From: Torpedo marmorata
Taxonomy: Eukaryota
DNA: 64,000 nucleotides
Direction: 5' to 3'
Assembly (NCBI GenBank): GCA_977017645.1
Contig: OZ360226.1
Location: 55,552,001-55,616,000 of the forward strand
Of this stretch, positions 18,273 to 64,000 are shown in pieces. The notes below the pieces were generated by a model. The model was not told the DNA's origin. It ran no database searches and saw nothing but the letters and a program-made list of their open reading frames with translations. A program made the position numbers and the translations under genes. Every line of letters begins with the position of its first letter. The first letter of the stretch is position 1.

Positions 18273-19291
18273 TTACATCAAAGACTGGCTGAATATTCTA
18301 TCCTTTTGTTCTTGAAGTATCCACTTACTCAATAGCTCTTGGAGTTGAACTTCAGCCAGCTACAATAAAGTTGGATGATCATTTTACTTCAAAAAAGGAT
18401 GTACCACCATTCTCCCTTCTCCACAATCATGGTTAAGATGCTAAAGTCATCAGATGAAAACCTAACTATCTGTGTAATATGACTGCTTCACTCCACTGGA
18501 TGGGAGCCCAGAGCTATGTGTGGATACACTGGGATCCCCTCTAAGGAAAGTTCATCTGAAAGTTTCTTCTGGGATAGCAAAGGTCCTGTGGAAAATTAAC
18601 AGCATAGATTAGTACTTTCAAGATAAGAATGATTAACATGTAATCACTCAGCAGTCATATCCAAAAAGTGAATGTTTAGTGCAGTTTGACTGCATGTGCT
18701 AGAATTCTCTCCTTGACTAGTTGTTGGTGCCTCGCCTGAACCATTTATCATGTTGTTTTTGCACATTCTAATATCCAGATCATATCTGCGGATTTGGCTC
18801 TGCAGGAGATATCAGCTGGGTATTGGATGAAGTCCCGACTGCAGTTCTCTGACTCTCCTGATACTCTATGATCTTTTCCTCTGCAAACATGGAAAATAAT
18901 ACAAATAAGAGTAATGACATGTGTTTAATAATTGGGGGTATTGAGAACAGTTAAAGAACTTTGAAGAAGCAGGATGTTGTATAAGTGGTGGCTGGAAAGA
19001 TGGAGTTCTGGGGAAATACATTAACAGAGAAGAATGAAAGAACTTGTTGGCTGAATAGTTACAAGGAATAAACTTAGAAGGGCAGGCGAGAGGATTGGAT
19101 CAATACACGGATCAGTATGCATGTGAAAGTGACGTTGTCCTCAACTTCACTGATCATGGGGGGGCGTGGCATGATGGCGTAGGTTGAAGACGTGAGAATA
19201 CACCTCTCCCCACAGATTTAGTTAAAAAGTGTATATAAATAACTTTATACAGTTCAAAAACAGATTAAAAGTCATTATAAAATATTTAGCA

Positions 19292-20683
19292 ATGGCCTCT
19301 AGAAAAGCAAGAGAACAGAAAGCAAAGAAAGCAATGTTGCAAGCAGTTTTACTTCAAGAAGAAAAACGGCCTACCTGTCCGATGGAGCCTGAGACTCAGG
19401 TAATTCTCCCTCCGAAGTCTGCACGGTCGAGGTCACTGAGAGAGACTGTAGCGCCGACGCTGCTCTCCCAGGGAGCTGGGGAAGATGGTGCCGGCGCTCG
19501 AAGAAAAACTACAAGAATGATGACGGAACAACCGCGCATGCGCGAAAAGACGTGCATGCACGATAGACAACGCGAACTGTCAGATGAATCTGACAGCAGA
19601 AGAGACGTTCCACAGACATTACAATACGCTGTGGAACCTGAAACATTGTCAGATTCAGATGGAAAGATGAAGGAAACGAAACAAATGCTGGAACAAGAGA
19701 TGGAGGAACTGGAGGGAAACCCTGAGGACTCAGCTGATGAAGACTCGTCAATAAGGCAAACTCAACAACAAATACTTCAGGCTATTTCAAAGTTGGAATC
19801 TCATATGGAACTTAGATTTAATTTAATGGTAGAAGAAATTAAAGAGGTGAAACAAGATATGAAAGGTCTGAGAAATACTGTGAATGCAGTGAAAGTGAAA
19901 GTTCGAGAAATTGATAAAGAAGTTAAAGATAATTATGATGAATTGGTGGACCATAAGGAAAGAGTTGATAAAATAGAAGATTCATTTACAGGTTGGGAAC
20001 AACAAAGAAATCAACTTTTACAAAGATTGGATCAATTGGAAAATCAAAGCCTGAGAAATAATATTAAAATTGTGGGACTTCCTGAAATTTTTGAAAAACA
20101 AGATATAACTGAATTTTTTCAAGATTGGCTTTTGCAGGTTTTGTCTTTAGACAAGTCAGTGGAGTTGGAAAGAGCACATAGAATTGGGAGACAAAATCAA
20201 TATATGGATCAAAGACCACGTCCAGTTTTGATTAAATGTCTTCGATACCAAGACAGAGAAAGAATATTAAGAGCAGCCATTCAAAATGCGAAAATGGAAA
20301 AATCTCCACTGATGGTTAATGATAATAGAGTTTTCTTTTATCCTGATTTGAGCTCAACGGTAGTCAAAAGTCGGAAAGAATTTAATTAAACAAAAGCGCT
20401 TCTTTGGCAAAAGGGGTATAAGTTTTCTTTTAAATATCCTGCGGTTTTGAAGATTCAAACTGAAGAAAATCACTTCATTTCTTTTATGGATCCCCAACAA
20501 GCGTTACAGTATGCACAGTCTCTTTCTAATTTGAAGAAAGGTCAAGATTTGATGGTTTATCAACAAGGTCAAGAGATTTCACCACCACAAGTTTCTTTGC
20601 CAAATACTTCACGAAAAGAGGAGGAAGTTGAGGTTCAGATTGAAGTAGATCAAGATATTGTGGACATTGGAACAGTTAAATGA
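19292..20683 (+). pseudogene. L1 ORF1 with one in-frame stop (20387-20389)
   Basis: LENQSLRNNIKIVGLPE, ELERAHR and FFYPDLS. ORFs 19229-20389 and 20447-20683 are in the same frame. Confidence 0.9.
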
Positions 20684-27464: not shown

Positions 27465-29277
27465 AGATCTCTGGACATCGGATCTACTGGCAAACCTGAC
27501 CTCCATAATAGAATTAGTTTATAGATGTATTTTTTTAGATTGACACTGTCCTTACTCTATCTTTTTCTTTCTTTCATTTTTATTTTTATTTTATATTATT
27601 TTATATTTTTTTTATTTTATTAGATTAGTGGGGTTGGGAGGGGTGGGTGGGAGGGGGGGGGTGAAAATGTATCCCAAGTATTTTGATAATTTCATATTTT
27701 ATTTTATGTATTCTGTGATTTAAAATTTTAAATAAAATATTTTTTTTAAAAACTTCACTGATCATATCTCACTAGTAAGCAACTTGTGATACTGAATCAG
27801 AGGTGGAGACGACAGTCATTCTGCTGACTTCTGTGACCTCCTCCAACTTGTCCTTCTTGCTGTTCACTGAAGCATCATTCAACCATCTGTAGGGAATGCA
27901 ATCTACCTGCTGGCTTTGATAATGACCATGTAGTGAAGCTTCAGAAAACATAAAGGTTTTGTTTGCTGTGCTCCCTATTCATTTTCTCTTCTTTACAAAA
28001 CCAGGGATTCTGAAAGTAATATTTTCAATGATGCTTTTACTTACCTAAACTGAATTTGAGTTGTATGCATGGTCCTCATGTTCATTCTGCCTCACCACTG
28101 AAAAATGCCAAAACTGTTGGTAGAGCAGTTGGGTAAAGCCAGATCCGACGAATTTTCCAGCCAAACAGAAAAACATCGGACATGTTGTGATCAGAATTGC
28201 AGCATTGTACAAATTGTTCCTAGTACACGGTGAACACTCTGTCCCATAGTGTCCACCCCAGGTGCAGTAGAGCGGAGCATGGTGATGAGATACTGCAACT
28301 CAGGATTTTCTGAAGGGAATATACTCTGCAATTTGTGTTTACTATTGCTTTCTGAGAAATGGTTCGGTAGTGGTTGATCAAGACAATTAGAAAGAAATTT
28401 CTCTTGGGAAGTCATGGAAAATAGAATGCTTTCCACTGGGGACCAGTTAAGGGAAAAACCACTGCAGCTTTTAGAGAAACAATTGATCGTGACTCAAAGA
28501 AGCAGGTTAAGCAAAGTTATGGGGTGAGTATGGTCACATGGAATTGTAATGGATTGTTTAAAGGTCCCTGTGCCTGGATGAAGCACTCAAGAGGAATGGG
28601 AGAAAAGATGTAGTGATTTTTCTTATCTCTGACAGTTGAAAGTAATGTTTGCAGCATGCAGCGAAAGGAATAGCACGTGAACATGACCAGTGTTCATAAG
28701 TTACTGTATCCCATCACTATACTCTATGCTCCAATACACTATTAAACAAAATGCTCTACTTCAAATGCCAGAATGCTGACAACAGAGACAATGGATAATT
28801 TATTTTATTTTGACAATGAAAGCAGTAAAAGTTTATTTATTTCCAGCCTGCCCTGACCCTATATAAAAAAATAGTCAGATTCTGTTTTTTGTCCTTTAAT
28901 TTTCAAATAACATTGGAATTGTTTTATGTCAGTTGTACATCTCTATCAGAGAAGAGTATAGAATCTAATATGGACAACATCAATTTACATATCTGTAAGA
29001 TAGAGGCTCTTTAAATTGAGACATTTCTTTGTCCAGATGATGTCTCTACATCGATCTTTGAGAATAGTCATACTGCACTTTTGTTCTGTTTTAAATGCAA
29101 ATTGAATGTAAATATTACAATTTACTATAAATATTTAACTGTGACAAAAAACATTTTGACAGATCTTTTAGATTACAGAAAAAGTTGATATTAAATACCA
29201 TGAAACATAAGAAAGAGAGCAGATACAAAAATGAAATCTGTTTTTTGGTGTTGTTTGCTGTCTCTTCTAGTACCAAT

Positions 29278-31531
29278 TGTAGCGACTTAGTTCAATAAAA
29301 TAGTCGCTTGGAGGCTAAGTGAGGCGTTTGTCTGCGACGCGTTTCTTGAATGAATCGGTAACGAAGCCCAAATGAATTTTCTTAAACAGTCTTTATTAAC
29401 AGACACAAAAGGGTTAACGTTTGTAGTATCATTCAATATCAATAGCAAAAAACTACTGTAGAAGAAAGTAACGTTCTAGCGAAATACCGATTAATCATAA
29501 CATGTAACGTGTAACGTTCTAAGGTCCGTGTAACGGTCAACAGAAATTATCTTTCTTTTTTAAATCTCTTTATTAATTCCATAAAATCATGGATATAACA
29601 GTTCATTCACTATATACGTTTACAGGAAAAAAAAGCAAAGAAAAGCATTATCACATGTTCCATTAATCCATCCATAACAAGAGTATACATTACAGATATA
29701 TATCAATTTTTTTTTCTTTACAATTTAGTATTATAATACCAATAGGTATAAAAAGAACCAAGCCACAAAAAAAAAGATAATATAGTAATTTCATCATAAT
29801 ACATTTTTTTATAAAAGCTAAAGCAATCTAAACTAGCCTACCACCTACCCCCACCCCAGAATTGCACTGACCTGTAGAAATAATATAACTTCAAATCATG
29901 AGGAATCATAAACTCTGATAATAGTCGATAAAGGAACCCCAAATATTAGTAAATTTTAGGTTTAATTTAATATTTGAACATCTAATTTTTTCTAATGTTA
30001 AATAGGACATTAAACTTGATAGCCAATCTTCATAGATAGGAGGATTACCATCCTTCCATTTTAGCAAGATCTGTCACCTTGCAACCAGAGAAGAAAAAGC
30101 AATCACATGTTTTTGATTATTAGTAAGATCATGATTACTAGGATCATTTATACCAAATATTGCTATAAATGGATTTGGATCTAATTGAGTAGTTAAAACC
30201 AAAGAAAGAGTACAAAAAATTGTGTTCCAAAAGTCTAACTAACTTAGGGCACAACCAAAACATGTGAAATAATGTAGCTTCATGAACATTACATCTATCA
30301 CACATAGATGATATATTTGATCAAAATTTAGCCAGTAAAGATTTTGAGTAATGAGCTCTGTGAACTACTTTGAATTGAATTAATTTATGTCTTGCACATA
30401 ATGAAGAGGTATGGATAAGGTCCAAAATATTGGACCACACTGAAGGTGAAAAAATTTCTAAAAAATCTTTCCCAAGCCTCCTTTATTTTATCCACATGCT
30501 GTATCACATTTCCTTTTAAAAGGTTATAAAATACTGACAGGAGTGATAGTAAAAACCTTTTCTATGATTACTAACTTTAAATCTAAAGGAAACTCCAATC
30601 TCAAGGAATTTATAAAATTCCTAACTTGAAAGTATCTAAAATAATTGTTTCTAGATAAGTTATACTTATTAACCATCTGTTCAAAAGTAATGAAATTTGA
30701 ATCTATAAACAAGTTTTTAAATGAACATACACCGTGATCTTGCCAAATCTGGAACCCTCTATCCCCACGAGCTGAGGTAAAAAAGGTATTGAAATTTATT
30801 GTACTATCAAGCAAGAAATTAAGGAAATTATTTGCTTTTCTAAATTGGAACCATATTTTTAACGTTTGTTTAACTATCTTGTTATTAGAAATTTTGGAAT
30901 ATTTAAAGGGTGAAGGCATTCCTAATATAGATACTAACGAATGTTTACCTATAACCTTCATTTCTGATTTCATCCATTTAAATCTTTCTTGATAATTCTT
31001 AAAATGTATCCATATATTAATGTTAGCAGCCCAATAATAATTCCTGAAATTAGATAAAGCAAAACCACCCTGTGGTTTGTCATTCTGTAGTACTTCCTTT
31101 ATTACTCTTGGTCTTTTACCATTCCAAATAAAAGACGAAATTAAAGAGTCTATTTGATCAAAAAATACTTTAGGGAGAAATACTGGAAGTGCTCAGAATA
31201 CATACAATGACAGAAATTATCGACGCCTAACTCACCCTCCGATCACCCAACTGACGATGCGGGCTAACGAACTTACTTTTGAACGCGTGCAAAACCCCGC
31301 GCATGCTCATTGTAGAACGCGCTGGCCCTGGCTTCAACCGCTCGCTACCGAGCCGAGCGTGCATGCGTTAACCCAATCCATGGCGCATGTGCACCGGTGG
31401 ACATGCCGGCCCCGGCTGAAGTCGCTGCCACCGGGGATGAGCCAACCGCGCATGCGCGGCCACGGGAAGAGGCCCACAGACCCCGGAACACCGCCGACGC
31501 CCGCGGCCGAACCACAGGTAAGGCTCTTACA
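29278..31531 (-). repeat. 3' LTR of BEL copy 1, split by an L1 insertion
   Basis: Colinear with 37054-37679 once 29552-31221 is removed. Short purine tract (minus-strand agggaccgg) abuts it. Confidence 0.92.
29552..31209 (-). mobile_element. 5'-truncated L1 of a different family inserted in the LTR
   Basis: 12-bp TSD acagaaattatc at 29540-29551 and 31210-31221. ORF 30524-30973 has YFRYFQVR. AATAAA plus an A-rich tail. Confidence 0.9.
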
Positions 31532-32165
31532 CCGGTCCCTAATTATTATAATGAGACGTAATGTCTCTAATAATAATTACATAATTATACAGTCAATCAT
31601 AAATAACAATTAACCACGTAACATTTGAACATGACGCAGGTCTTCTTTCTTCATTTGTAATAAGGCCAGAGGTTACCAGCACATAGCCTTGAAAAGATAT
31701 TTACTACCACTCTGCAGTCTGTGTAGTGGGCAAAGTACAAAACGCATAACAAATAAAGTCAGTTTGGACTTCTCAAAGTTCCTCCGTCTTCTGTAGAATC
31801 CATGAGTTAAAACATCGACCAGTAAACCTCAGATCTTCCTCAGACAGAATAGACACAGCTTTCCTTTTGAGTTTCACATGAGGTACATCTTCAGCATGTC
31901 GTTTGGCTTTCTTCCTTTCTTCAGCATTCTGCTTCTCATTGTAAGAATTTTAACTTTTAGAACCAGATTTTGAAGATTAATTTGATCCTCTCGATTTTAA
32001 TAAACGAGTCTCTTTAACTCTCCCTGCAACAGGTTTGCTCATCTTTTTCTTTCTTTTCTGCAGTTGATCATAGATAAGGTAAGATTCAAATGACATTAGT
32101 TCTTCAAACTCATCAACAGCCACAGCATTTGTAGAATCCTTCTGTAAAGAAGTAGACTGGTTCCA

Positions 32166-32689
32166 CTTATAGCTCCTACAAATCTCTTTAACTAGAACTG
32201 GAGCCTTTTCAACCTCTCTGGCTTCTATTGTCTTTTTCTGCAATTGCAGATCCAATTTTGCAACTTCCAATTCAGCCTCAGTTTCTGACTGTTTATTTTG
32301 AAGCCTTTTATTAGATTCTTTCTCTGCATTCAATTCTTTCGATAGGAAAGTAATTCTCTCGTTATCTTCTGAGAAGTTACTAACTTGATCTTGAATGAAA
32401 AGGTCATGTGATGTATTGGTACTTCTGCTTTCAGCCCTGCTGTAGTAATATCTCTTTCTTTGTGCATCGTTATTAGCTGGGCCTTCAAGATACATTCTTG
32501 ATTGTTTTCTGTAGTCAGCTGTCTTGTGTTATTAACCAATGGCTTGTTCTCTTTCAAAAGGTGAATCTTCTCATCCAACTGTATGCATCTTGATAAAACT
32601 GAATCTCTTTCCTCGATAACTGTATTAATTTCTTCAGCAGTTATTCTTTTCTTCCATTCTCTGGCTTTGCGAATTCTATCTACAATTAA
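32166..32689 (-). pseudogene. MIPOL1: Captured MIPOL1-like coiled-coil segments in BEL copy 1
   Basis: LIVDRIRKAREWKKRITAEEINTVIEERDSVLSRC..NNTRQLTTENNQECILKAQL and ITFLSKELNAEKESNKRLQNK..LQLQKKTIEAREVEKAPVLVKEI resemble two regions of vertebrate MIPOL1 as I recall it. Confidence 0.8.
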
Positions 32690-32864
32690 ATCTTTCTGGT
32701 TACTGTTTTCATGATTATCCAATATTTCCAAGTCCCCTTTCAACATTTTGTTCTCTGAAGGCAGTTGCACCAGTTTTGCAGTAATTTGTTTTAGTTCTGC
32801 CTCAGATTCAATTACACAGGAATAATCACCAACAGTATTTGCAGCATCTTCTAATACATCATTT

Positions 32865-35552
32865 TCATCTATTGTTGATAAAAAATAATTTCTTCTTTAC
32901 TGGTCTAGATGCTCTTGATTTATTTTCATCAGTAAGATTTTCTAAGAACTGTTTGTATACTTTTGAAGGTTTTTGATTGTTATCAAGGCGTTCAGGAAAG
33001 TCTGTATTAAACGGTTGTTTCAATGGTTCGTTGAGTTTCACAACAGATATCATATTGACACTTCTTGTTGACTGCTTCTGAGCAATATTATTCTTTCTTT
33101 CTAATAGTCCATTGATTGTCCATCCAAGCATAATTTTAATAGCGTAAAGTCCATCTCTCACACTCGGTATTACTTTTATTGGTTCCAGAGCCTTTGGTAC
33201 ATCAAAATCAATTAGCATCTCTATCTCAGAGCTATTTTCCGGTATATAAACCTTCCTCAGATACAACCACTGATTCACATCACTTTGATGTGGGATGTTT
33301 CCTTTATGCACAGGCATAGTCTTTTGTGTATATATGCTAGGAAGATCACAAAAATCGTCGCTGTGTATTCCAGCAACCTCTAACCCTGAAACGATGTTAG
33401 TTTCAATGACCTTTTCTTGTCCCATGGTTTTCAATAGAATCCTTGACTTTTTTCCTTCAAGATTAACCCTTTTCATAAGCCCCATAATGCAAAACGACAC
33501 AGTGCTTCCTGGGTCAAGAAATGCATGTGTACGTACCGTTGCATTTCCGTTCTTGGTCTTGACTTGTACAGGCACTATTGAGAGTTTGCAGTTATCCTTA
33601 CCAGCCCCAGTAAGACCACTTGTCTGAACCGAGGCAATAACACTGTTTTCTGCTGCTTCTTTTGTTTCTGTTTGCTCCTTTTCCAGTTCCTTGTTCCTTT
33701 GGTGAATATGCAGTATTCTAGGATGCTTCAAATTGCATATGTTACAGCTAAATCACTTCTTGCAGTTTTTACTGATGTGCCCTTTACAGCCAAAACATAC
33801 TCCATTTTCCTTTAAGAAAGCGATCTTCTCATTATGTTCCTTCTTTTCCAATTGTGAACACATTTCCAAAGCATGCTCATCTTTACAGAACAAACAGTTT
33901 TTTTCTCAGCAGGCAAACTCTACTTCTCTATCTGTAATTGATACAGCAGTAGCAAAGGTGCTTCCCTTTATTTTTTGATGAGGCTGTGACTTGGACTTCT
34001 TTACGTCTTCGATCACTGTTGGAGTGTCGATATTTCCAAATACTGGTACAGTTGCGATCCGCACGTGCCATTCAAGGAACCACAATATCCTCAAAGGTAG
34101 CATCCTTTCTATATTTTGTCTGAAGTTTACGAACTCTTGTTCTCCACAAATCCTTCAGCCTGTAAGGCAATTTGCTTGTGATGATTAACATATTGGAAGG
34201 TAAGTTAAGCTCACGCATGCGGTCGATATCTTCCATGGCATTACCACGTCCTCTTAAAAAGAGGGCGTATGCTTGTAAAGCCTTTATATCCTACGATTTT
34301 ATTGATGACCATGAAATAACCTTCTCTATATAAGCCATTGCAATTTTATGCTCATTGCCAAAATGATCTTGTAGTAATGCCTTTGCCTTAGTGAATCCCC
34401 TTTCTGGGTCCATATGCAGGCAACTCCTCACCAGTTCCTGTGGCTGTTGTCCAGTGTACTGTTCCAGGTAATAAAGGCGATCTATGGCATTTTTATTCTT
34501 ACTTTCGATATTATGTTCAAAAGATTTAATGAATGCTTGATACTGAAGTAGATCTCTGTTTAAAAACTTGAATCTCCTTCTTGGTTAAGGAATAGAGACC
34601 TTGTTGCTGCACTAATAAAGCAGTAATTTCATTTTGTTTTGCCATGATTGACAATATATTGTCTTGTTCACCATGGCTTAAAGCCGGTACTGCAGCTGAA
34701 AACATCACATGTCCTTCTTCACCCTGATTTTTATTACCTGACGGAAGTGAATAGAATTCTGGCTGGATAGATTGAAATCCGCTCATATCTCTGACCACTG
34801 GGGTCATTATTGGGGTTTGAGATTTGGCACCACCTTGCCTTAACCTGGCTTGTTCGGGTCCATACACGTCTCGTAACCGTAACACTGGCTCTTCTTTGGT
34901 ATTAAATATTTTCTTTTTCTGTTGTCCTTCCTCAAAACCTGACTCCAAAACGTGAGATGCTTTAGATAATTTACTTCAAGCACCAGATACCTCTGAGCCT
35001 TCTAGTACCCTCGACTTGGACTCCTTAACAGCTATTTTTGTTTCTCAGTTCCAGTTGCTCCTTTTGCCTCCTTAGCTGCTTCCTTAGCTGCTCCTCTTTC
35101 TTCCTTAGCTGCTCCGCTTCTCTTCGTAGCTGTTCTTCCTGCTCTTCCTCTAGTTCTTCTAAGGCATATTTATCGTTAAGCCATTCTTGTTCTGCTTCAA
35201 AAGTGGCCATTTCAGCCCGAACTTTTACACGTGTAGATTCAGTACTTGAAACACTGGAGCTTGCTCTAGAACTCCTCTTGCTTCTCCTGCTACCAATATT
35301 AGATGCACTATCACCTGGTCATATATCATCCTCTATTTCAGATGTCACATTAATATCTGACTCCTTTTCAAATTTGAGTCATACATCCTCTTCTCTTTCG
35401 TCCTCTTCACCGACATTTTGTGACACATCTTTAGCCATTTCCGTACCACTGACTCGAGAATCATCTGACGTCATCTGCAGTGCTTTCGCGGAGTCTTTAC
35501 TTTCATCAACCAAAGCTGCCTCTTCTTTTTTAATTGCCAGCTTCAGTCTATC
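32865..35552 (-). pseudogene. BEL Gag (DUF1759-like), zinc knuckles and aspartic protease, degenerate
   Basis: ORFs 35025-35210, 34526-34948, 33906-34103 and 32865-33731 (LSIVPVQV, AFLDPGS, LGWTING). Confidence 0.88.
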
Positions 35553-36610
35553 GACAATCAGTGAAGATTGGTAAGAACTTCTCCTCCACAATCTCCATCA
35601 GTACCGGAGCACCACAGGGCTGTGTTCTTAGCCCCCTGCTCTACTCACTTTACACCTACTACTGGGTGGCTCGGTACGACAATAACACCATCTTCAAATT
35701 TATCGACTATACCACGGTAGTGGGTTGTATAAAGGAAGGGGATGAGTCAGCATACAGGATGGAGATTGAAAACTTGGCTGAATGGTGCACCAACAACAAC
35801 CTTGCACTCAATGTCACCAAAACTAAGGAGCTGATTGTTGACTTCAGGAAAGGAAAACCAGAGGTAGATAATCCAGTGATCATTGGGGGATCAGAGGTGG
35901 AGAGGGTGAGCAAATTTAGGTTCTTGGGAGTTACTATCTTGAAGGATCTTTCCTGGACCCAACATACCAATGGCATCGTGAAGAAAGCACGTCAGCGCCT
36001 CTACTTCCTCAGGAGTTTGCGGTTTGGCAAATTTCTACAGAGGTGTGGTGGAAAGTATGCTGACCAGCTGCATCATGATCTGGTATGGGAACACCAATAC
36101 CCCTGAGTGTAGAGCCCTCCAAAAGGTAGTGGACACAGCCCAGGACATTACAGGCAAAACCCTCCCCACTATTGAGTACATCTACAGGAAACGCTGCCGT
36201 CAGAGGGCATCAGCAATGATCAAAGACCCACACAACCCAGCACACACTCTGTTCTCACTGCTGCCATCAGGAAAGAGGTATAGGTGCCACAAGACTCGCA
36301 CCACCAGGTTCAGGAACAGCTGCTACCCCTCTACCATTAGAATCCTCAACAACAAAGTAAATCAGAGACTCATTTAAGGACTCTTACTTGTGCATTTTAT
36401 TGATTTTATTTGTTCTCTCTGTATTACACAGTCAGTTTGTTTACATTCATTATCTGTTTACAGTTCTTTTGTTTGTTTACATGTTTACGCTGTGTACAGT
36501 TTATTTTTGCACCACCAATTAGTGGTAATTCTGCCGCGCCCGAAGGAAAAAGGAATCTCAGGGTTGTATGTGATGTCATGTGTGTACTCTGACAATAAAT
36601 CTGAAATCTG
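35553..36610 (+). mobile_element. Rex1 5'-truncated copy inserted in the BEL gag N-terminus
   Basis: ORFs 35534-36106 ([15 protein letters not shown]) and 36024-36377. Tail aataaatctgaaatctg. Confidence 0.92.
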
Positions 36611-37053
36611 AGAGCGCTTTTGTCACCTTTTGTATCTAGCCCCTGTTGGCGCAGTTCTTTCATAAGATCTGCCAGGTTTCGATACGTTGTGACTTAGCGC
36701 AGACTCCTGAAGCAGTGGCAGCTATTTCGCCCGTATCCATCTCGATGCCGAGTTCCCAGCACAGAAACACAAGCAAACTGTACTGTTATCAGCAAGCAAA
36801 ACTCCACCGCAGCATCTGTAATTTATATCACTAATTTGCAAGAAATGGCTTTACCAACGTGTCAACAAAATCATCTTCTAACAGATTAGAAGTTTCAAAC
36901 TCCTTTTCTGGCCACTACTCAGGCCGATGGATATGGATTACAAACTGCAAAGCAACTCCGTATTTCTAAGATGGCCACCGTATTGCTTTCAATACAATTC
37001 AATTTCCCCTTAAAGCAGTCCAAATTTTCCAATAAAAATTTCTGTCGACTAAT

Positions 37054-37679
37054 TGTAGCGACTTTGTTCAATAAAATAGTTGCTTGGAGGCTAAGTGAGG
37101 CATTTGTCTGATGTGTTTCTTGAATGAATCGGTAACGAAGCCCAAATGAATTTTCTTAAACAGTCTTTATTAACAGACACAAAAGGGCTAAAGTCTGTAG
37201 TATCGTTCAATATCAATAGCAAAAAACGACTGTAGAAGACAGTAACGTTCTAGCGATATACCGATTAATCATAACATGTAATGTGTAACGTTCTAAGGTC
37301 CGTGTAACGTTCTAACGTCCATGTAACGGTCAACAGAAATTATCGACGCCTAACTTACCCTCCTCAGATCGCCCAACTGATGACGCGGGCTAACAAACCT
37401 ACTTTTGAACGCACGCAAACCTCCGCGCATGCTCATTGTAGAATGTGCTGGCCCTGGCACCAACCGCTCGCTGTCGGCACCAAGCCGAGCGCGCACGCGT
37501 CAACACAGTCCATGGTGCATGCGCACCGGTGAACATGCCGGCCCCGGCTGAAGTCACTGCCACCGGGGACGAGCCAACCGCGCATGCGCGGCCATGGGAA
37601 GAGGCCCACAGACCCTGGGACACCGCCGACGCCTGCGGCCAAACCACAGGTAAGGAACGACGAGCCTTTGGCTCTTACA
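37054..37679 (-). repeat. 5' LTR of BEL copy 1
   Basis: 626 bp with TG..CA ends, a CpG-rich U3 and internal ~18-bp tandem units (gtaacgttctaaggtcc). Confidence 0.92.
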
Positions 37680-38295
37680 CCCATATTTAATACAAAACAA
37701 AGAACTTGGCAATCCACCTGACGAAGATGCTGACAACCATGCCATTATAAAGGTTTGGATTTTGATTGGGTAGGGCATTTTGCAGTGCATGCTATTGCAC
37801 CATTGGAATCTTGAATCTTTCTATGCACCTGTCATCTTAATTCATTTATGTGCTGTAGGGTGCTGGAATTACTGAAATTTAGAACCTTGGTGAATGATAA
37901 GACTGAACTGCATCTCCTTAACATGATTTGAGGATCGAGAAAAAAGGACTAGAGATTCACAATAATGTGAATCTGAGTAAAATAGGGTTGAAAGAAGAAA
38001 TAAAAGATCAGATTAGATCAAGACAACGGAAGAGAGAAAAAAAGAAAATGTTCGAACAGAAAATGGTAATTTGATGTTTCTTAAGTCTGAATAACTACAA
38101 GCAGGAATAAATTAAAGTTTCAAATTGTTCAAACTTGGGTACACAAAGGATGATTGTCATCATTTTAACAAACTTCATGTTTTTAGAAATGTACAATACT
38201 CTAAAATTGAGAACATGTGAATGTAAATATGATCAGGAGTAGCCCATACACAAAGAGAAACTATTGAACAGTCATGTGAAAATTTTAAAAAAAAA

Positions 38296-39280: not shown

Positions 39281-41805
39281 CAGTGCCCTCAATAATGTTT
39301 GGGACAAAGTCACTTTTTTCCTTTATTTGCCCCTGTGCTCCACAGTTTTAAATTTGTAATCAAACCATTCACATGTGATTAAAGTGCACATTCCAAATTT
39401 TATTCAAGGTTATTTGTATACATTTTGGTTTGACTATGTAGAAATTACAGCACTTTTTATACATAGTTCCCCCATTTCAGGGCACCATAATGTTTGGGAC
39501 ATTTGGCTTTACAGGTGTTTGTGAATACTCAGGTATGTTCAATTGCTTCATTTGTGCAGGTGCAGTATAAGAGAGCTAGGCTTGCTTCTAAGCTTTTGAT
39601 CACCTTTGGAGTCACAATGGCGGCGCTGCCGGAGCCGCTGTAGCGGCAGCGCTGCCGCTGGTGCAGACCCGCGGGGAGCGAGGGAGTGGAGATGCAGTGC
39701 TCCCGCGGGGTCCAGCTGCCCAGTCGACTGCTGTCAGCTCCGCACGGGCTTTAAACGGCCCGTTGAGGGAGCCGACGGTGGTTTTATTTATGATCCCGTG
39801 ACTGCGGGGTCTGCGCCCAAGATGGCCGCGCCTATTATCGGCAGCAGCCACAAGGGGTTGCAGACTCCGGGGAAGTGGAGGACTGGAGCAGGGCACCAGA
39901 GGATGGGAAAATCACCCCCCCCCCACCCCGCTCTGAGAAGGAGAAACGAAAGATATGACCCACAGGACGGTGACCACGACGGCGGACCAGTGAGGGGCTC
40001 TGAGGCTGAGGGACCAGTGCACGCGGCGGGCTGCTGGCGACTCGAAGCGAGTAACCCGCGGAAACTGTGGGCTGCTGGAGACTGCTGTCGGGAGACTTGC
40101 GCCGGGCTAGAGACTGGCTCGAAGTGGCTGGAGGAATACCAGGTATCGGAACCGGGATGCGAGGGGGTGCCGAGGGCGCCGAATGGTTCCTGACCGTGTC
40201 GGAGGTTCGGATCTGGAGCTCGTGTTGCTGATGGTTTTGACTGGAATCTGTGTGGCTGCGGAGGCTGCGGAAGTGCATCTACGGACACTCAGTGACTCTG
40301 GGGGGACTCCCTTTTGCTTTTCTTTCTCTGACTGTAAGTCTGACTGTAAGGAATGTTAGAGGCATTTAGGCAATTTTTTCTGGTGGCGAATCTGTCTGCC
40401 TTGCAGCAGGAAAAAAGAAATTTCATGTAATATGACACTGTCTTATTACTATGATAATAAATTGAATCTTGAATCTTGTAGTTGCCATGTTTCAACATGA
40501 GGACCAGAGTTGAGCCAATAAAAGTCAAAGAAGCCATTTTGAGGCTGAAAAACAAGAATAAAACAGTAAGAGATATTGCCCAAACTTTAGGATTAGCAAA
40601 ATCAACTGTTTGGAACATCATTAAGAAGAAAGAGCGTACTGGTGAGCTCAGTAATCACAAAGAGAATGGTAAGCAAGGAAGACTTCCACTGCTGATGACA
40701 GAAGAATTCTCATCATAATGAAGAAAAATCCCCAAATGCCCGTCTGACAGATCAGAAACACTCTTCAAGAGGCAGATGTCGATGTGTCAATGACTACTCT
40801 TCGCAGAAGACTTCATGAACAGAAATACAGAGGCTACACTGCAAGATGCAACCACTGGTGAGCCATAAAAACAGGATGGCCAGATTACAGTTTGCCAAGA
40901 AGCATTTTAAAGAGCCTATAGAATTCTGGAAAAAATGTCTTGTGGACAGATGAGACAACGATTAACCTGTATCTGAGTGATGGCAAGAGCCAAGTGTGGA
41001 GGCGTAAAGGAACTGCTCAAGATCCAAAGCATCCCACCTCATCTGTGAAACATGGTGGTGGGGGTGTTATAGCCTCGGCATGTATGGCTGCCACAGGTAC
41101 TGGCTCACTTATCCTCATTGATTTAACTGCTGATGGCAGTAGCAAAATGAATTCTGAGGTGTATAGAAACATCTTATCTGCTCAAGTTCGAGCAAATACT
41201 TCCAAATGCATTGGACGGTACTTCATCCCACAGCAAGTCAATGATATCAAACATATTTCTAAAGCCACAAAGGAGTTTTTCAAAGCTAAAAACTCGAAAA
41301 TGCTTGAATGGCCAAGTCATTCAATTGAAAATTCAATTGAGCATGCATTCCATATGCTGAAGAGAAAACTTAAGGGGACAAGCCCCCGAAACAAGCAGTA
41401 GCTGAAGATGGCTGCAGTAGAGGCCTGGTAGAGCATCATCAGAGAAGATACTCAGCACCTGGTTATGTCAATGAATCATAGACTCAAGCAGTCATTGCAT
41501 GCAATGGATATGCAACAAAGTATTAAACATGACTACTTTAAGTTGCATACCATTGCTATTACAGATTTTCGTGTTTTACTTATATTATGGTTGAAGTATG
41601 GTTACCTGAAATGAGGGTACCATGTACCAAAAGTACTGTATTTTCTGCATGGTCAAACCAAAATGTACACATATACCCTTTAATGAAATGTGGAATGTGC
41701 ATTTTAATCACATGTGAATTGTTTGATTATAAATTTAAAACCGTGGAGGACAGGTGCAAATAAATGAAAAAAGTGTCTTTGTCCCAAATATTAAAAAGGA
41801 CACTG
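39281..41805 (+). mobile_element. Tc1/mariner transposon (long IR/DR-type TIRs), transposase decayed
   Basis: TA|CAGTG...CACTG|TA ends and ~200-bp TIRs. HTH RDIAQTLGLAKSTVWNII (40482-40718). WTDET, VKHGGG and EWPSHS motifs (40940-41401). Confidence 0.93.
39617..40477 (+). mobile_element. GC-rich non-coding retroposon with a Rex1-like 3' tail (copy 1), inserted in Tc1
   Basis: Colinear with 53821-54673 and 58027-58660. Ends with aataaa(ttgaatc)n. Confidence 0.85.
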
Positions 41806-42878: not shown

Positions 42879-43107
42879 AAAAAACACAAATGCTGGAGAA
42901 ACTCAGCAGGTCAAACAGTGTATTTTATGTAGCAAAGGTAGAAATACATAACCGACGTTTCGGGCTTGAGCCTTTCATCAAAGCCCGAAACGTCGGTTAT
43001 GTATTTCTACCTTTGCTACATAAAAGACACTGTTTGACCTGTTGAGTTTCTCCAGCATTTGTGTTTTTTACTTCAACCACGGTGTCTACAGATTTTCGTG
43101 TTTTACT
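42879..43107. mobile_element. Palindromic Penelope 3'-end insertion
   Basis: 88-bp arms (42880-42967 and 42981-43068) with 2 mismatches. TSD tcgct(c/t)atataat at 42865-42877 and 43108-43120. Matches the 3' end of the 50372 Penelope. Confidence 0.88.
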
Positions 43108-48589: not shown

Positions 48590-50363
48590 CAGGGCTGGCA
48601 CTACCATTAGGTCAACTAGGCAGCCGCCTAGGGCGCAGACCTCAGAGGGGCGCTGGCTAGGAAGGGGGAGCTGCTGACCCACCTGCAGAACCTCATCAAG
48701 GCCGAGCCCAGGAGCCGGCTGACCACCCCGTGCGCCAGCTCGCCATGACCGCCTATACCTTCCTGCTCAGGCTGGGGCCCCCACTCAACAAGTCCTACGT
48801 CACCGAGCTCATCAAGATTGCCCGGACAGCATGGTGGGTCTGCAGGCCGGGGCGAGCGGGCTGGAGGCAGCGGAGGAGAAGGCCGGGGACGCCGCATATC
48901 AGGAGACCCACTCCACTCTCCAGGGCCTGCTAAGCGAGATCCTCCTCCGAGAGCCGAGCCCTGACGAGCTCCAGGCCATCTTCAAGCACATCGAGGGCTG
49001 GGTTGTCTCCCCCAAGGAGCAGGAGTGGGCTATATAAGTCATCCGCAGGCTGCTGGCACTCTACCTGGAGAAGGCGAGCGGCCGGTGTCAGGCGGAGTTC
49101 GGACACGAGGGCCCCATGGTGGGCCGACTGGCTCCGTGCCTCGCCAACCCGGCGCCGGCTAGCATCAGCGCCCTCTTCCACATCCAGCTGCGCTGCCGGG
49201 GCGTGTCCGAGGGCCGGCCCGATGAGCTGGTGGAGCACCTGAAAGCCGCCGGCACCTGGCTCCGCCGCCCCACTCCTCCTGCAGCTCTGCTCCGAGCTGG
49301 CGAAAGCTGCGTGCAGGCACATCCCTCGCCAGCAGATCGGCCCTCTCCTCTTCACTCTCTTCGAGGGGCTGGACGACCACTACCCCGGCTGCTCCAGAGC
49401 TGCGTCCACCATCATAAACCCCGTCGTCCCGTCCTGCGGCTCCGCTCTCCGGGGCCAGGTCTTAGACATTCTCAAGGCACTGCCCGTGTACCTGCAGTGG
49501 ACGGCGGGAGAGCAGGTCAGACTCTCCATCATCCACTTCATCTCCGTGCAGGCTACACACAACACAGCCGAGGCGGTCTCCTGCCTCCTCTTCTCACCGC
49601 TGCCCTTTGACGCCAACACCCGCCACATCTGGCACTCGCTGGCTGGCGACACTGGCATGGCCACGGCCGTCATCCACCTGCTGCTCAACACCTTGGACGA
49701 GCGCTTGTGCCTGGAGCCGGAGGCCGGAGCCCCGCCACGCCGCGGTGCTGGCGTCTGCCTGGCCCTGGAGCCCCTGAGCGTTATCTGCGCCCTGAAGGAG
49801 ATGCTGTCGAACCGGGAGTGTACCGCGGCCGTCAGCAGCCTTTACCTACGGCTCTTCTGCGCTCTGCTGCTGAAGCTCGGCGCCAGCGCCAGGGCACACC
49901 CCGAGGCGTGCACGGTGTCGCCCGACGCCCGATGCTGCTTGGCAGAGGTGCTGCGGACGCTCCTGGGCACCGGCAGTGGTGGCGTCCCGCTTGCACGAAG
50001 CGGGGGGCTGGTCCGCCCTGATGGACCCCGAGCGCCACCATGAGGGGGTGGCCGCTCTGGCCGTGGCCTCACATGCCGGAGCCCACCTGACCATGATCAT
50101 CCACCTCGTTTCCTGCCTCCTGCCCCGCTTGGCTGCCGACTCCGAGCAGCCGATGCTGGCTGCCTTTCTGGCCGTGCCCCCGGGCCACCCTGTCGCCTCC
50201 GACCTCCACCTGACCGACGCACTAGTCGAGAGCCTCCTATACGGCGCACGTTGAACATCACATCAGGTATTGCACCAACCGCTCAGCCCGGTCAGCACCG
50301 CCCCCCCCCCACACCCCGTGCTCAGCCCGGCCTAGGGCGCAAAATAGTCTGGCACTGGCCCTG
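48590..50363. mobile_element. Non-autonomous hAT-type DNA transposon carrying MROH1-like cargo
   Basis: Perfect 8-bp TSD acggctag (48582-48589 and 50364-50371). Termini CAGGGC...GCCCTG. Subterminal gcctagggcgc near both ends. No transposase. Confidence 0.88.
48655..50254 (+). pseudogene. MROH1: Intronless, frameshifted MROH1 (maestro HEAT-like repeat)-like fragment
   Basis: RKGELLTHLQNLIKAEP, PVRQLAMTAYTFL, LQAIFKHIEGWVVSPKEQE, AVSCLLFSPLPFDANTRHIWHSLA, PLSVICALKEML..LYLRLFCALLL and GGWSALM..HHEGVAALA occur in the order I recall for MROH1. Confidence 0.82.
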
Positions 50364-50371
50364 ACGGCTAG

Positions 50372-51453
50372 GTCTTCCAATGCAGATCATCTGAAATGTC
50401 CGCCTTCTTCCACAAACATGACTTCCCCTCCATCACCATCAATTCAGCACACACCCACATCTCCTCAATTTCCCGCTCATCAGCCCTGGCCCCCTCTGCC
50501 CCCAGACGCAACAAACACAGGATTCCGCTTGTCCTTACCTACCACCCCACCAGCCTCCGCATCCAACACATTATCCTTCATAATTTCCAGCACTTACAAC
50601 ATAATTCCACTACCAGACACATCTTCCCCTCTATGCCTTCTGTAGGGACCGCTCCCGCTGTGACTCCCTCATGCACTCATCCCTCCCATTCAGTCGTCGT
50701 CCCCCCAGGTGGCCGCAGGAAGTGCAACACTTGCGCCCACACCTCTTCCCTCACCACAGTTCGGGGCCCCAAACAGGCCTTTCAAGTGAAGCAACACTTC
50801 ACTTGTATCCACGGGAGTGATTTACTGCATCCAATGCACCCTTTGTGGCCTTCTCTATATTGGAGAGACTGGGCGCAGACTGGGAGATCGCTTCGCTGAT
50901 TACCTTCGCTCTGTCCGCACCAGTGACAGGGATCTCCCAGTGGCCAACCATTTCAATTCTGCGTCCCACTCCAATACTCACATGTCTGTCCATGGCCTCA
51001 TGTACTATCTCACCAAGACCACCTGTAAATTGGACAAACAACACTTGATTTTCTGTCTGGGCACTCTCCAGTGGAGGGCATTAACATCGACTTCTCCAGT
51101 TTCTGCTCACCTACTCTCCATTCTCCTTCCCTTTACCTTGTCTTCTTTCCCTCAGCTCTTCACCCCCTTCCCTCTCTATTCACCGAGCCATCCCCCCCTG
51201 CTTGCTGCTGTGCCTTGCTCCCTTCTTCACCTATTACCTCCTGCCTTTGGGACCGCGCTCCTTCCCCCACCATTCCCCACCTTACCTTTTTGTTTGAACG
51301 CCTGCCAACATTTTCCCATACATTGATGAAGGGTTCAAGCCCGAAACGTTGGTTATGTATCTTTATTTTTGCTATATAAAGTACACTGTTTGACCTGCTG
51401 AGTTTCTCCAGCATTGTGTTTTTACTTTAACCACAGTGTCTGCAGATTTTGTG
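50372..51453 (+). mobile_element. Penelope-like element, 5'-truncated (RT C-terminus + GIY-YIG endonuclease + 3' end)
   Basis: RIPLVLTYHP, IYCIQCTLCGLLYIGETGRRLGDRF and PVANHFN. Hammerhead-like tgatgaagggttcaagcccgaaacg at ~51324. Confidence 0.92.
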
Positions 51454-53820: not shown

Positions 53821-54673
53821 AAGATTCAAGATCAAGATTCAATTTATTGTCATAGTAATAAAACAGTGTTATATTCCATGAATTTTTTTTTGCCTGCTGC
53901 AAGGCAGATAGATTCGCCACCGGCAGAAATTGCCTAAGCGTCACTTACATTCCTTACAGTCAGAGAAAGAGAAGCAAAAGAGAGTCCCCCCAGAGTCACC
54001 GTGTGTCCGTAGATTCGCCTCCAGCGCTTCCGCAGCCTCCACAGCCACATAGAGTCCAGTCCAAACCATGGGCAACCCGAGCTCCAGATCCAAACCTCCA
54101 ACACGGTCAGGACACCCTCGGCACCCCCTCGCATCCCGGTTCCGATACCTGGTACTCCTCCAACCAGTTCGAGCCAGCCTCCAGCAGTCCGCAGCCTGGC
54201 GTGAGTCCCCCAACAGCAGTCTCCAGCAGCCCACAGCCTCCGCGGGTTCCTCGCGTAGAGTTGCCAGAAGTCCGCCGCATGCACTGGTCCTTCAGCTTCA
54301 GAGCCTCTCACTGGTCCTCCGCCGTGCTCACCGTCCCGTGGGTCGTCTCCTCCGCTTCTCCTTCTCAGACGGGGGGGGGGGGGTGATCTTCCCGTCCTCT
54401 GGTGCCCTGCTCCAGTCCTCCGCTTCCCCGGAGTCTGCAGCCCCTCATGGCTGCTGCCGGTTAAAAGGCGCTGCCATCTTGGGCACAGACCTCGTGGTCG
54501 CGGGATCTTAAATAAAACCACCATCGGCTCCCTCAACGGGCCGTTCAAAGCCTGTGCGGAACCGATGGCAGTCGACTGGGCAGCTGGACCCCACGGGAGC
54601 GCTGCATCTCCGCTCCCCGCGGGTCCGCACCAGCGGCAGCGCTGCCGCTATAGCGGCTCCGGCAGCGCCGCCA
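53821..54673 (-). mobile_element. GC-rich non-coding retroposon (copy 2, full length)
   Basis: Reverse complement of 39617-40477 with the same 5' start (tggcggcgctgccggagccgct) and the same tail. Confidence 0.87.
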
Positions 54674-54869
54674 GTGGTTGACCTGTGTTGATTCTTCACC
54701 ATTGTTAATTGCAGCTCCAGCCCAAACACATACAGATGCACCCAGTTAAGAGGAAAGAAAAGTGGAGAGTTTAGCAAGAGCAATGGATCAGTTAGCATTT
54801 CAAAGATCTCTTCCACTGAGACTCCATTTGATGTGAGTTTGTTTGATTACATTACACAACTTCGGTGTT

Positions 54870-56950: not shown

Positions 56951-58026
56951 TAGAATCAGAATTTATTGTCATGAACAAGTCATGAAATTTGGTGTTTTGC
57001 GGCAGCATCATAGTGCAAACATTCATATTAAAACCATCTTACGACATTACTATAAAAAATATATATAAATAATAGTGCACGAAAAGTAAGGCAGTGTCTT
57101 TGGTTCATTGATTATTCAGGAATCTGATGGCAGCGGGGAAGAAGCTGTCCTTGTGCCATTGAGTGCTCATCTTTAGGCTCCTGTACCTTTTTCCCGATGG
57201 TAGCAGAGTGAAGAGGGCATGGCCTGGGTGGTGGGGGTCTTTGAGGATAGAGGCTGCTTTTTTAAGACATCGCCTCATGTAGATGTCCTCAATGGAGTGA
57301 CGTCTGGTGCCTGTGATGTCACAGGCCGAGTTAACAACCCTCTTTAGTTTATTCTTGTCCTGAAAGTTGGCGCCTCCATACCAGGCAGTGATGCAACCAG
57401 CCAGAATGCTCTCCACGGTACACCTGTAGAAGTTTACGAGAGAATTCGGTGAAATGCCAAATCTCCTCAGACACCTCACAAAGTATAGCCGCTGGCGAGC
57501 CTTCTTTGTGATTGCATCAAGGTGGAGGCTCCAGGACAGATCCTCGGAGATGTTGACACCAAGGAATTTGAAGTTCTTGACCCTCTCCACTACTGAGCCC
57601 TCGATGAGGACTGGGTTGTATTCCCCTGACTTCCTCCTGAAGTCCACAATCATCTCCTTGGTTTTGCTGACGTTGAGCGCAAGGTTGTTGTCGTTACACC
57701 ATTCAACGATCTGATCAATCTCCCTCCTGTATGCTTCCTCATTGCCGTTTGTGATTCTGCCGACAACTGTGGTGTCATCAGCAAACTTGTTGATGGCATT
57801 GGAATTGTGCCTGGCCACACAGTCATGGGTATATAACGAGTAGAGCAGTGGGCTAAGCACGCATCCTTGGGGTGCGTCTGTGTTGATAATCAGTGAGGAG
57901 GAGACGTTGTTTCCAATTCATACTGACTCTGGTCTTCTGATAAGAAAGTCAAGGATCCAGTTGCAGAGGGGGATACAGAGGCCTAGAGTTTGTAGCTTCT
58001 TGACCAGCACTGAGGGAATAATGGTA
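56951..58026 (-). mobile_element. Rex1 5'-truncated copy (ATTCTG-tail family)
   Basis: ORF 57105-57860 is nearly identical to 6829-7773 and 14626-15375. Confidence 0.93.
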
Positions 58027-58660
58027 ACCGCGGGGTCTGCGCCCAAGATGGCAGCGCCTATTAATCGGCAGCAGCCACGAGGGGCTGCAGACTCCAGGGA
58101 AGCGGAGGACTGGAGCAGGGCACCAGAGGACGGAAAGATCACCCCCCCCTGTCTGAGAAGGAGAAGCGGAGGAGACGGCCCACGGGACGGTGACCATGGC
58201 GTCAGACCAGTGAGGGGCTCTGAGGCTGAAGGACCAGTGCATGCGGAGGGCTGCTGGCGACTCGAGGCGAGGAACCCGCGGAGGCTGTGGGCTGCTGTAG
58301 ACTGCTGTCAGGAGACTCGCGCTGGGCTGTGGAATACTGGAGACATCAAACTGGCTGGAGGAGTACCAGGTATTGGAACCGGGATGCAAGGGGGTGCCGA
58401 GGGCACCGAAGGGTTCCTGACCGTGTTGGAGGTTCGGATCTGGAGCTCGGGTTTCCGATCGTTTGGACTGGACTCTGTGTGGCTGCGGAGGCTGCAGAAG
58501 CGCTGGAGGCAAATCTACGGACACTCGGTGACTCTGGGGGGACTCTCTCTTGCTTCTCTTTCTCTGACTGTAAGGAATTTAAGAGGCGCTTAGTCAATTT
58601 CTGCCGGTGGCGAATCTGTCTGCCTTGCAGCAGGCAAAAAATATTTCATGGAATATAACA
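58027..58660 (+). mobile_element. GC-rich non-coding retroposon (copy 3, truncated)
   Basis: Aligns to ~39801-40435. Confidence 0.83.
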
Positions 58661-59830: not shown

Positions 59831-60233
59831 CAGGTGCTCCTCAACTTACGATGGGGTTGCAATCCGGCAAACCCATCATAAGTCGAAAAAATCATGTCGA
59901 AAAAGAATACCGCACCTACCATTTTTTATAATTACATTTTCAATACCTTTGAGATAGTCGATTGCGAAAGTCCTAACTCATGTGCTATAGCCATTACTGG
60001 CTTGCCGCCTTCACGCTGAGCAGGTATCTTGAGTTTTGTCTCCAGAGTAATTGCTTTCCTCTTTTTCTTCTCACCAGAAGCAGGAGACACACATGGGCGT
60101 TTAGTACACATGATGGGTTGTTTACAGTGCACTCATTCGCGTGACCGCTACAGAGACTGTGAGCGTGGTTGAGTCAGCATCGTGAGAGAGTATGCTGTAT
60201 GATACTCTCACGCGATGCTGCCATCGCCCATAT
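59831..60233 (-). mobile_element. Tigger/pogo-like DNA transposon derivative, interrupted by BEL copy 2
   Basis: TA|CAGGTGCTCCTCAACTTACG TIR. CENP-B-type N-terminal HTH KRKAITLETKLKI..IAHELGLSQSTIS (59932-60132). Confidence 0.8.
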
Positions 60234-60862
60234 TATGGTGACTTCGATCCAACAATAGTCACCTGGAGGCTAAGTGAGATACTTGTCCTTGACGCGTTTT
60301 AATTAATTTACTAACAAAGTCCAATATGTTCAAAAACTTTATTTACACACGTGACTTGCAGTAATCTTCAATGACATTAATATAAACAGTTCTTGAAAAC
60401 GATGTATGATGAATTCCTTTAAATGATTCCTTTTTTACTGTATTCAGATGTTCAATTAAACTACTTTAAACCACAAATAAACTAGTTCAAAAGCTTGATG
60501 AAATGATCTATGAAACGTCTTGAAACGATATAAAACGCTGTAAAATGGTCAATAAAGATATGGAGATCTCACTCACCCTCCTAAATCTCCATCTTTCTCC
60601 TATTCTATTTCTCTCCGATTCGCGCATGCTCCCGTCGCTCCTATACCACTGCGCACCCTACACCGCGCATACTACATTTCCCAGACTACACCGCGCACAA
60701 TGACGTCACTCCAAATTGCGCATGCGCCCGTCGGCACTCCAGCGCACGCGCAGAGCACAGAACGGGCCGGAAACGGCCCAGAGACAACGCGAGCGCTCCA
60801 TAACCCGACGAGACATCGGAGCGCCGCAGCAAAGGTAAGTTAATGAGCCTACGGCTCTTACA
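60234..60862 (-). repeat. 3' LTR of BEL copy 2
   Basis: Ends match copy 1 (ggaggctaagtgag near one end, ggctcttaca at the other). Purine tract aggggccgg abuts it. Confidence 0.85.
60671..60727. promoter_or_regulatory. Cluster of ZNF143-like, CRE and NRF1-like motifs in LTR U3
   Basis: actacatttcccag at 60671-60684, tgacgtca at 60701-60708 and tgcgcatgcgc at 60717-60727. These are motif matches only. Confidence 0.55.
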
Positions 60863-63980: not shown

Positions 63981-64000
63981 TGATGCAGCAATTTCATTTT

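Follow-up and report, generated by a model that had tools for sequence, protein, structure and literature searches.

How does a long terminal repeat (LTR) retrotransposon come to carry host coding sequence where its enzymes should be, and how does such an element persist? The question is raised by an element at positions 29278-37679, on the minus strand, of a 64,000-nucleotide stretch of the Torpedo marmorata genome (contig OZ360226.1, positions 55,552,001 to 55,616,000; the whole stretch is referred to here as the window). An earlier note, made from the letters alone, had proposed that Gag and protease (PR) are followed there by coiled-coil sequence of the host gene MIPOL1. The element, hereafter copy 1, is confirmed as a BEL/Pao derivative with LTRs, gag and protease. 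It probably belongs to a non-autonomous BEL/Pao family in which host pieces (from BRCA1, MIPOL1 and Elongin A) took the place of the enzymes, that of MIPOL1 being derived from a circular RNA, and which is copied by a helper with which it has exchanged its ends.

Host sequence in place of the enzymes

Three host genes, BRCA1, MIPOL1 and Elongin A, contribute spliced pieces to the cargo, and each piece keeps the reading frame of Gag-PR. The coiled coil is indeed MIPOL1, as all 10 protein matches among 772 candidates agreed (best match Narcine MIPOL1, 86% identity, E 1e-31), but MIPOL1 is accompanied by two further genes and its order is permuted; these, together with the back-splice junction and the exchange of ends described below, were missed in the earlier note, which was to that extent incomplete. 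The cargo tail, queried from the relative L007, corresponds to Elongin A (five matches among 171 candidates, four of them so named, best E 5e-30), and the stretch ahead of MIPOL1, queried from L013, to BRCA1 (one match among 92 candidates, E 3e-23). The BRCA1-matching part falls beyond residue 196 of the Narcine BRCA1 isoform X2 record, and also matches a second protein of 1,943 amino acids and a host locus with a 1,195-codon exon. Residues 1-196 of that record match other transposons in several loci, which is likely an annotation error. All three genes map to both family copies in the window (in copy 1 with E 5e-20, 2e-36 and 1e-30, and 8e-33). The best protein matches of the cargo come from Narcine and other batoids, and the host exons differ from the Narcine proteins.

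In the host, the three genes are single intron-containing loci, with MIPOL1 on C40, BRCA1 on C61 and Elongin A on C41; a 100% Elongin A match at C40:104.93 Mb, considered as the host gene, is another, interrupted copy. The seven least-deleted copies together contain four BRCA1, six MIPOL1 and five Elongin A exons joined exactly and without introns, a pooled set of which individual copies may miss some exons; their identity to the host exons is 90-94% overall and mostly 90-99% for single exon matches. The sources of the cargo were therefore spliced RNAs. Spliced host sequence replacing part of the internal open reading frame (ORF), retention of both LTRs and the lack of poly(A) are features of LTR-mediated retrocopies. 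A 111-nt gap in Elongin A was rejected as exon skipping because it runs between two CCAAAAG-like repeats, and indels of 3 nt (MIPOL1 exon F) and 9 nt (BRCA1) were rejected as element events because Narcine agrees with the cargo, which makes them host-side changes.

The earlier statement that the element has no reverse transcriptase (RT), RNase H or integrase core also stood. The polyprotein of the helper aligns to copy 1 solely at residues 89-954 (gag, zinc knuckle, protease and linker), its RT, RNase H and integrase core match nowhere in copy 1, and a search of the cargo interval for cryptic RT or integrase found none. An RT match within copy 1 (E 8e-11) comes from a long interspersed nuclear element (LINE) nested in gag. 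As RT, RNase H (PF05380) and integrase, which in autonomous BEL/Pao elements follow the protease within a single ORF, are missing from the element and present in the helper, it is a non-autonomous derivative rather than an autonomous BEL/Pao member. Searching the broken pieces of copy 1 against Pfam gave no BEL and no MIPOL1 match, the set used having no family that matches MIPOL1 itself; DUF1759 reached 26.1 bits in the relative L044 (cut-off 25.4) and fell under the cut-off in L018 and L026.

Origin of the MIPOL1 piece

The MIPOL1 residues of the cargo run from 444/452 to 553 and then from 295 to 381, and the join between the two blocks reads TACTACAG followed directly by CAGGGCTG. In the host gene, the splice donor of exon G (C40:64385712) has TACTACAG directly ahead of GTAAGC, and the acceptor of exon A (about C40:64591882) has TTTGTAATAG directly ahead of CAGGGCTG, the boundary falling between TAATAG and CAGGG; each of the two patterns matches the genome once. 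The acceptor lies 206 kb upstream of the donor in the direction of the MIPOL1 gene. Both boundaries recur in shark MIPOL1 isoforms, the donor as the start of a skip and the acceptor with a shift of 3 nt. Exons A-G measure 136, 106, 130, 34, 171, 108 and 95 nt, are all bounded by AG/GT and sum to 780 nt, a multiple of 3. About three quarters of this seven-exon circle is present in the cargo, and both genome matches (2/2) to the uncaptured arc lie at the host MIPOL1 locus. In the DNA map of the seven least-deleted copies, no MIPOL1 sequence from outside exons A-G was found in the cargo, some tblastn alignments that run past residue 553 being over-extension. A tail-to-head join exactly at splice sites makes a circular RNA template likely, and we judge it highly probable, on this junction, that the MIPOL1 piece was copied from a back-spliced circular RNA. 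A circ-MIPOL1 is mentioned in PMC9888537.

An identical G-A junction would also be yielded by a linear RNA, arising either by trans-splicing or by transcription of a host gene whose exons A-G had long ago been duplicated in tandem. Such a linear source is nevertheless unlikely: exons A, C, E, F and G are single-copy in the assembly, and the MIPOL1 piece is confined to one turn of the circle, with nothing beyond A-G at the DNA level. It might further be supposed that the permutation arose from a chance template switch on linear MIPOL1 mRNA, since the element switched templates several times and a 2-nt AG overlap is possible at the G-A join. That explanation is already largely refuted by the host donor and acceptor matches and appears extremely improbable, as a backward jump would meet both a donor and an acceptor with a chance of about 1e-4 to 3e-4, whereas none of the six other host-side cargo ends coincides with an exon boundary, all of them lying inside exons.

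With a circular RNA as the source of the MIPOL1 piece, capture would have proceeded by template switching inside a particle. Starting on element RNA, the reverse transcriptase would have moved to Elongin A mRNA, then onto the MIPOL1 circle (read over about 75% of its length and across the back-splice junction), next to BRCA1 mRNA and finally back to element RNA, in one or several rounds, and the chimera would then have been mobilised in trans by helper enzymes. Several points weigh against this account. Microhomology at the original switch points is sparse: the BRCA1/MIPOL1 point has 2 nt, the BEL/BRCA1 join contains about 11 unassigned bases and the MIPOL1/Elongin A join about 20-25, and the Elongin A/BEL join is unmatched to any helper sequence; the copies compared were chosen as top or first-listed matches and not randomly; and the parent circle, the chimeric transcript and the protein are predicted from DNA sequence. 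Later deletions carry microsimilarity (8 nt, AGATTTAA; the CCAAAAG repeat). At L078:5044-5210, spliced 5' exons of Elongin A (residues 54-117) stand directly ahead of BRCA1, with no gag-PR, an arrangement that may reflect either one more switch onto Elongin A mRNA or the order in which the pieces were captured.

The family and its helper

Genome searches covered the 6.2-Gb assembly, from which 112 stretches (about 832 kb) were fetched, and 74 copies were grouped by shared deletions, with L078, L098 and a copy split over L079/L080 excluded. The cargo is common to at least four subfamilies. Subfamily 0 (12 copies) has the longest cargo, of about 690 codons, with 90-94% identity to the host exons; subfamily 1 (20 copies, including copy 1) has 85-89%, subfamily 3 (eight copies, with a 400-bp LTR) 82-86%, and subfamily 2 (34 copies, including window copy 2) 76-82%. 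Different parts were deleted in each, and cargo length falls from some 690 codons to some 340. Junction-spanning exact 19-mers matched the genome 249 times in the host-like form and 4,607 times in the subfamily 2 form (controls, 0), so that copies bearing the junction number in the thousands; tandem arrays and any duplicated haplotigs raise these counts somewhat. As only 6 of the 12 copies in subfamily 0 and 12 of the 20 in subfamily 1 carry the host-like word, 249 is an undercount, and none of the eight subfamily 3 copies carries either word. In subfamily 2, LTR pairs are present in 22 of 34 copies and are 93.5-100% identical, and in four of the 34 a frame of 1,280-1,369 codons runs uninterrupted from gag across the cargo. 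All five sites that changed in this host after the Narcine split still show the ancestral residue in the cargo, and at 17 of the 20 sites specific to Narcine the cargo has the residue of this host, which places the capture near or before the split between the two.

Other arrangements were seen among the copies. Six subfamily 1 copies (L001, L003, L009, L011, L016 and L020) have in common an internal rearrangement in which gag and protease are largely lost; this form seems to keep its frame into the cargo, as a replicating variant that needs no protease in cis. G000:C1:1498500-1518374 (L044) is a tandem array of at least five subfamily 2 units with a spacing of 4,964 bp, and in L012, L083, L095 and L099 young subfamily 2 copies lie inside or beside older chimeric copies.

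The search proposed in the earlier note for an autonomous BEL with matching LTR ends was successful. A genome search with PF05380, in which 150 of 6,618 candidates were scored, returned many frames of over 2,000 codons, and six of eight fetched helper loci share the LTR start and polypurine tract (PPT) of the chimera, their own LTRs being 94-100% identical. One helper locus encodes SAP, DUF1759, RT, PF05380, integrase and DUF5641 in that order; a profile search detected no env-like family in helper or element. A 19-mer common to six helper loci had 1,117 genome matches, giving a chimera-to-helper ratio of about 4 to 1 by 19-mers (4,607 + 249 vs 1,117). Over LTR-gag-PR, subfamily 2 is 92-95% identical to the helper, against only about 73% for copy 1. 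The tree of the protease (51 rows) unites subfamily 2 with the helpers (100/100) and copy 1 with subfamily 3 (100/100), whereas that of the cargo (38 rows, L012 being omitted for its length; the bootstrap had not settled fully) places subfamilies 1 and 2 together (99/97). Both trees are midpoint-drawn, and their conflict is independent of the root. This discordance argues for repeated exchange of the ends and vertical descent of the cargo. Recombination between co-packaged RNAs is established for retroviruses, and swapping of LTR-gag-PR with the helper would be expected if both RNAs share particles. It is likely that the family is copied in trans by this co-resident helper; copy counts, matching ends and trees thus sustain the earlier proposal of amplification in trans and persistence as a lineage.

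Within the window, copy 1 begins on the minus strand with a 5' LTR (37054-37679), followed by a conserved TAGTCGACAG motif at the putative primer-binding-site position (37035-37053), which also follows the 5' LTR in related copies. The 5' piece of gag (36611-36745, from its translation) is contiguous with position 35555 in uninterrupted relatives; here it is separated from the remainder of gag (34081-35555; helper residues 89-573, with stops and frameshifts; DUF1759 in relatives) by a plus-strand 3' LINE piece with RT (35556-36610; RVT_1, E 7.8e-11), presumably CR1/L2-like, which is missing from L002, L006 and L013-L015. Zinc knuckles, aspartic protease and a remnant of the PR-RT linker occupy 32943-34079 (helper residues 575-954, 64% identity), with an LDPGS motif that we take to be the active site. 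The cargo comprises a spliced BRCA1 fragment (32686-32942; two host exons here and a 132-nt in-frame deletion), the 3' part of MIPOL1 exon E with exons F and G (32440-32693, spliced; a 52-nt deletion in G is private to copy 1), the junction of exon G donor to exon A acceptor (32439-32440), both of whose sites were located in the host, MIPOL1 exons A and B with the first bases of C (32181-32439, spliced), and an Elongin A fragment (31803-32159; the end of exon 4, the 111-nt deletion and the start of exon 6), and its frame ends in a stop codon at 31773-31775. The PPT (31532-31551) is identical to that of the helper at 19 of 20 bases. The 3' LTR, in two parts (31210-31531 and 29278-29551), is divided by a minus-strand 3' LINE piece (29552-31209), presumably L1/Tx1-like, with a 12-bp target-site duplication (TSD), ACAGAAATTATC, and no Pfam hit; the two nested LINE pieces, in gag and in this LTR, together account for about 2.7 kb. 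The LTRs of copy 1 (37054-37679 and 29278-31531) have TGT...ACA ends and a Kimura two-parameter distance of 0.079 over 582 aligned bases, whereas many young LTRs of the family terminate in TA, in contrast to the TG...CA ends of BEL/Pao. The element had been described as complete with a 5-bp TSD; its LTR ends are present, but stops and frameshifts interrupt gag and cargo, so that copy 1 is a dead copy, and its TSD (CCAAT at 29273-29277, CCCAT at 37680-37684) matches at four of five positions, a perfect 5-bp TSD being found in 16 of the 20 younger relatives in which the starts of both LTRs are present.

Copy 2 (60231-64000, minus strand), a young subfamily 2 member running to the window edge, has the same order of parts and a different LTR, as the earlier note had stated. 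It contains a helper-type 3' LTR (60231-60862), the cargo (61264-62353, with BRCA1 at 61925-62353, MIPOL1 at 61482-61932 and Elongin A at 61264-61482) and gag-PR (62349-64000, truncated at the end of the window; 94-96% identity to the helper). Elsewhere, positions 1-28000 hold dense L1/Tx1-like LINE copies with RT and endonuclease matches, including coiled-coil ORFs at 4410-5546 and 19226-20389 that are likely ORF1. A G+C-rich, broken stretch at 48900-50900 has a Maestro HEAT-repeat match (E 4e-26) and is possibly a repeated MROH-like fragment; one G+C-rich repeat without a Pfam match occurs in both orientations at 39600-40340, 53860-54680 and 57940-58660; and an 89-bp inverted repeat at 42879-43069 (98% complementary, 13-nt loop) resembles a miniature inverted-repeat transposable element, with a partial copy at 51323-51415.

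Role of the cargo and relation to known systems

In all four subfamilies, modal steps across cargo junctions and fixed indels are multiples of 3 and no fixed stop is found, as compared with 2.2, 4.8, 9.7 and 1.9 expected from private rates in subfamilies 0-3 (P 0.008 in subfamily 1, 6e-5 in subfamily 2); among private indels, 132 of 169 are frameshifts. In subfamily 2 (33 copies), stops occur in 0 of 77 shared vs 13 of 196 private variants (p 0.023), the shared cargo indels are of 24, 45 and, once, 1 nt, and none of eight shared indels in the 3' untranslated region is in frame. The dN/dS values against the host are 0.64, 0.58, 0.72 and 0.47 in subfamilies 0-3, lowered by the inclusion of host-side change, with private baselines of 0.72, 0.87, 0.84 and 0.89. 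The reading frame thus appears to be protected more clearly than the protein, whose amino acids seem weakly constrained. The distance from stop to PPT has medians of 196, 253, 423 and 204 nt across the four subfamilies, as compared with 200-208 nt in the helper, and the favoured interpretation, with somewhat better than an even chance, is that the cargo serves as translated filler holding the stop near the 3' LTR as in the helper. On that view, the benefit to the RNA would be escape from decay or good packaging, and the protein sequence would be of little import. Several results weigh against this interpretation. For subfamilies 0 and 3 the lack of stops does not reach significance (P 0.11 and 0.16), the shared 1-nt indel lies 22 bases before the frame end, and alignment columns were hand-trimmed to homologous parts after a first, untrimmed count had given many shared frameshifts, which were read as over-extension at truncated exon ends. 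Moreover, dN/dS lies significantly under the private baseline in subfamily 3 (p 0.032; others, p 0.2-0.9), and pN/pS in the subfamily 2 cargo is 0.46 for shared variants vs 0.72 (p 0.17), with 0.34 for gag and 0.31 for PR.

A working protein, either a coiled-coil tail on Gag-PR or a product released by the protease, is a less favoured and rather doubtful alternative, which may act in particle assembly, in competition for helper enzymes or in interference with BRCA1 or Elongin partners. The dN/dS values under baseline in all four subfamilies, the native frames of all three cargo genes, the excess of about 4 to 1 over the helper and the resemblance of the diverged young cargo to MIPOL1 in language-model features (0.83; a lead only) are consistent with such a function. 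It fits poorly with the loss of different cargo parts in each subfamily, with the divergence of subfamily 2 (76-82% identity to host DNA; dN/dS of its MIPOL1 part 0.97), with the deletion of most of gag and PR shared by 6 of 20 subfamily 1 copies, and with cargo pieces that come without the RING/BRCT and TFIIS-N/BC-box regions. Camouflage of the element by host-like cargo against small-RNA silencing, as proposed for plant elements (PMC13317346) and in keeping with the importance of the donor genes, is improbable: the most abundant and youngest subfamily is the least host-like, and camouflage would need no open frame. No chimeric protein was found in a search of 1.84 billion proteins (81 matches) or in the Atlas, which is not evidence of absence. 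The young cargo is also represented in contigs of four runs under three organism labels, the junction being spanned by one contig and the PR-BRCA1-MIPOL1 joins by another; as the kinds of run are unrecorded, they give no information on transcription.

Acutely transforming retroviruses form gag-onc fusions in which host cDNA replaces pol, leaving them defective and helper-dependent. The present family shares these traits but has no env, a long germline amplification and no sign of a kept host protein function; it may thus be said to work like a transducing retrovirus in its helper dependence, without being filed as a member. LTR-mediated retrocopies arise by template-switch capture of host mRNA (Tan et al. 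2016, PMC5131818), with spliced pieces replacing the internal ORF between two LTRs, often in frame, and include multi-gene chimeras such as the four-gene mouse 'Super' retrocopy and re-amplified non-autonomous elements, one mosquito case with a BEL element. Those described are young loci of one or few copies, and 'circ' is absent from the main text of that paper; the present family has thousands of copies, four subfamilies, swapped ends, a selected frame and a back-splice junction. Maize Bs1 is likewise an LTR element with three unlinked host gene fragments, a hybrid ORF and secondary retroposition (PMC5131818, PMC13317346); it is a plant element of 1-5 copies per genome for which the passages drawn on mention no circle junction, whereas this family is vertebrate BEL/Pao and outnumbers its helper. 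The 33 mouse pseudogenes from one circle, circRFWD2, have a non-colinear junction at splice sites, no poly(A) and LTR sequence enriched nearby, their mechanism being left open in the account drawn on (Dong et al. 2016, PMC4897178); here, the junction stands in a full LTR element, between captured mRNAs and in frame, at more than 100 times the copy number. Circular RNAs (circRNAs) are packaged in HIV-1 particles according to a preprint (10.64898/2026.01.21.700838). The earlier note knew of no description of such an element, and the family was not found in the literature, in a search that excluded subscription journals and Repbase/Dfam, but its capture mechanism is already published (PMC5131818; Bs1 in PMC13317346). 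The family is unusual in its circle junction, its three cargos in frame, its copy number and its long survival through end swapping.

MIPOL1 is the top retrocopy parent in cartilaginous fishes in another preprint (bioRxiv 10.64898/2026.06.26.734816), an excess for which its accessible text invokes non-LTR machinery and selective retention and no LTR explanation; the Vertebrate Genomes Project set includes an electric ray (PMC13320880). The family likely inflates retrocopy counts of MIPOL1 (and of BRCA1 and Elongin A) in these fishes, and is a different likely cause of the excess read there as selective retention; it will also confuse read mapping and annotation of the three genes. Other top parents in that preprint (SUDS3, SDF2L1, SLU7 and ZNF276), and the amphibian PIWIL2/DND1 retrocopies, may likewise be cargo of amplified elements.

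The route by which circRNAs are written back into genomes, left open by Dong et al. (PMC4897178), is pointed by a junction inside an LTR element towards packaging and template switching. The junction would be the fossil of a specific circle, likely present in the ray germline near or before the Narcine split, and the family offers thousands of replicates on why a non-autonomous element keeps a long frame of no evident use. Tentatively, selection may have made the Gag-PR-host protein part of a parasite that survived several generations of helpers and at present exceeds its helper 4 to 1; if so, this parasite would be the equivalent of a gag-onc virus in a vertebrate germline and would give a direct anatomy of circRNA entry into genomes.

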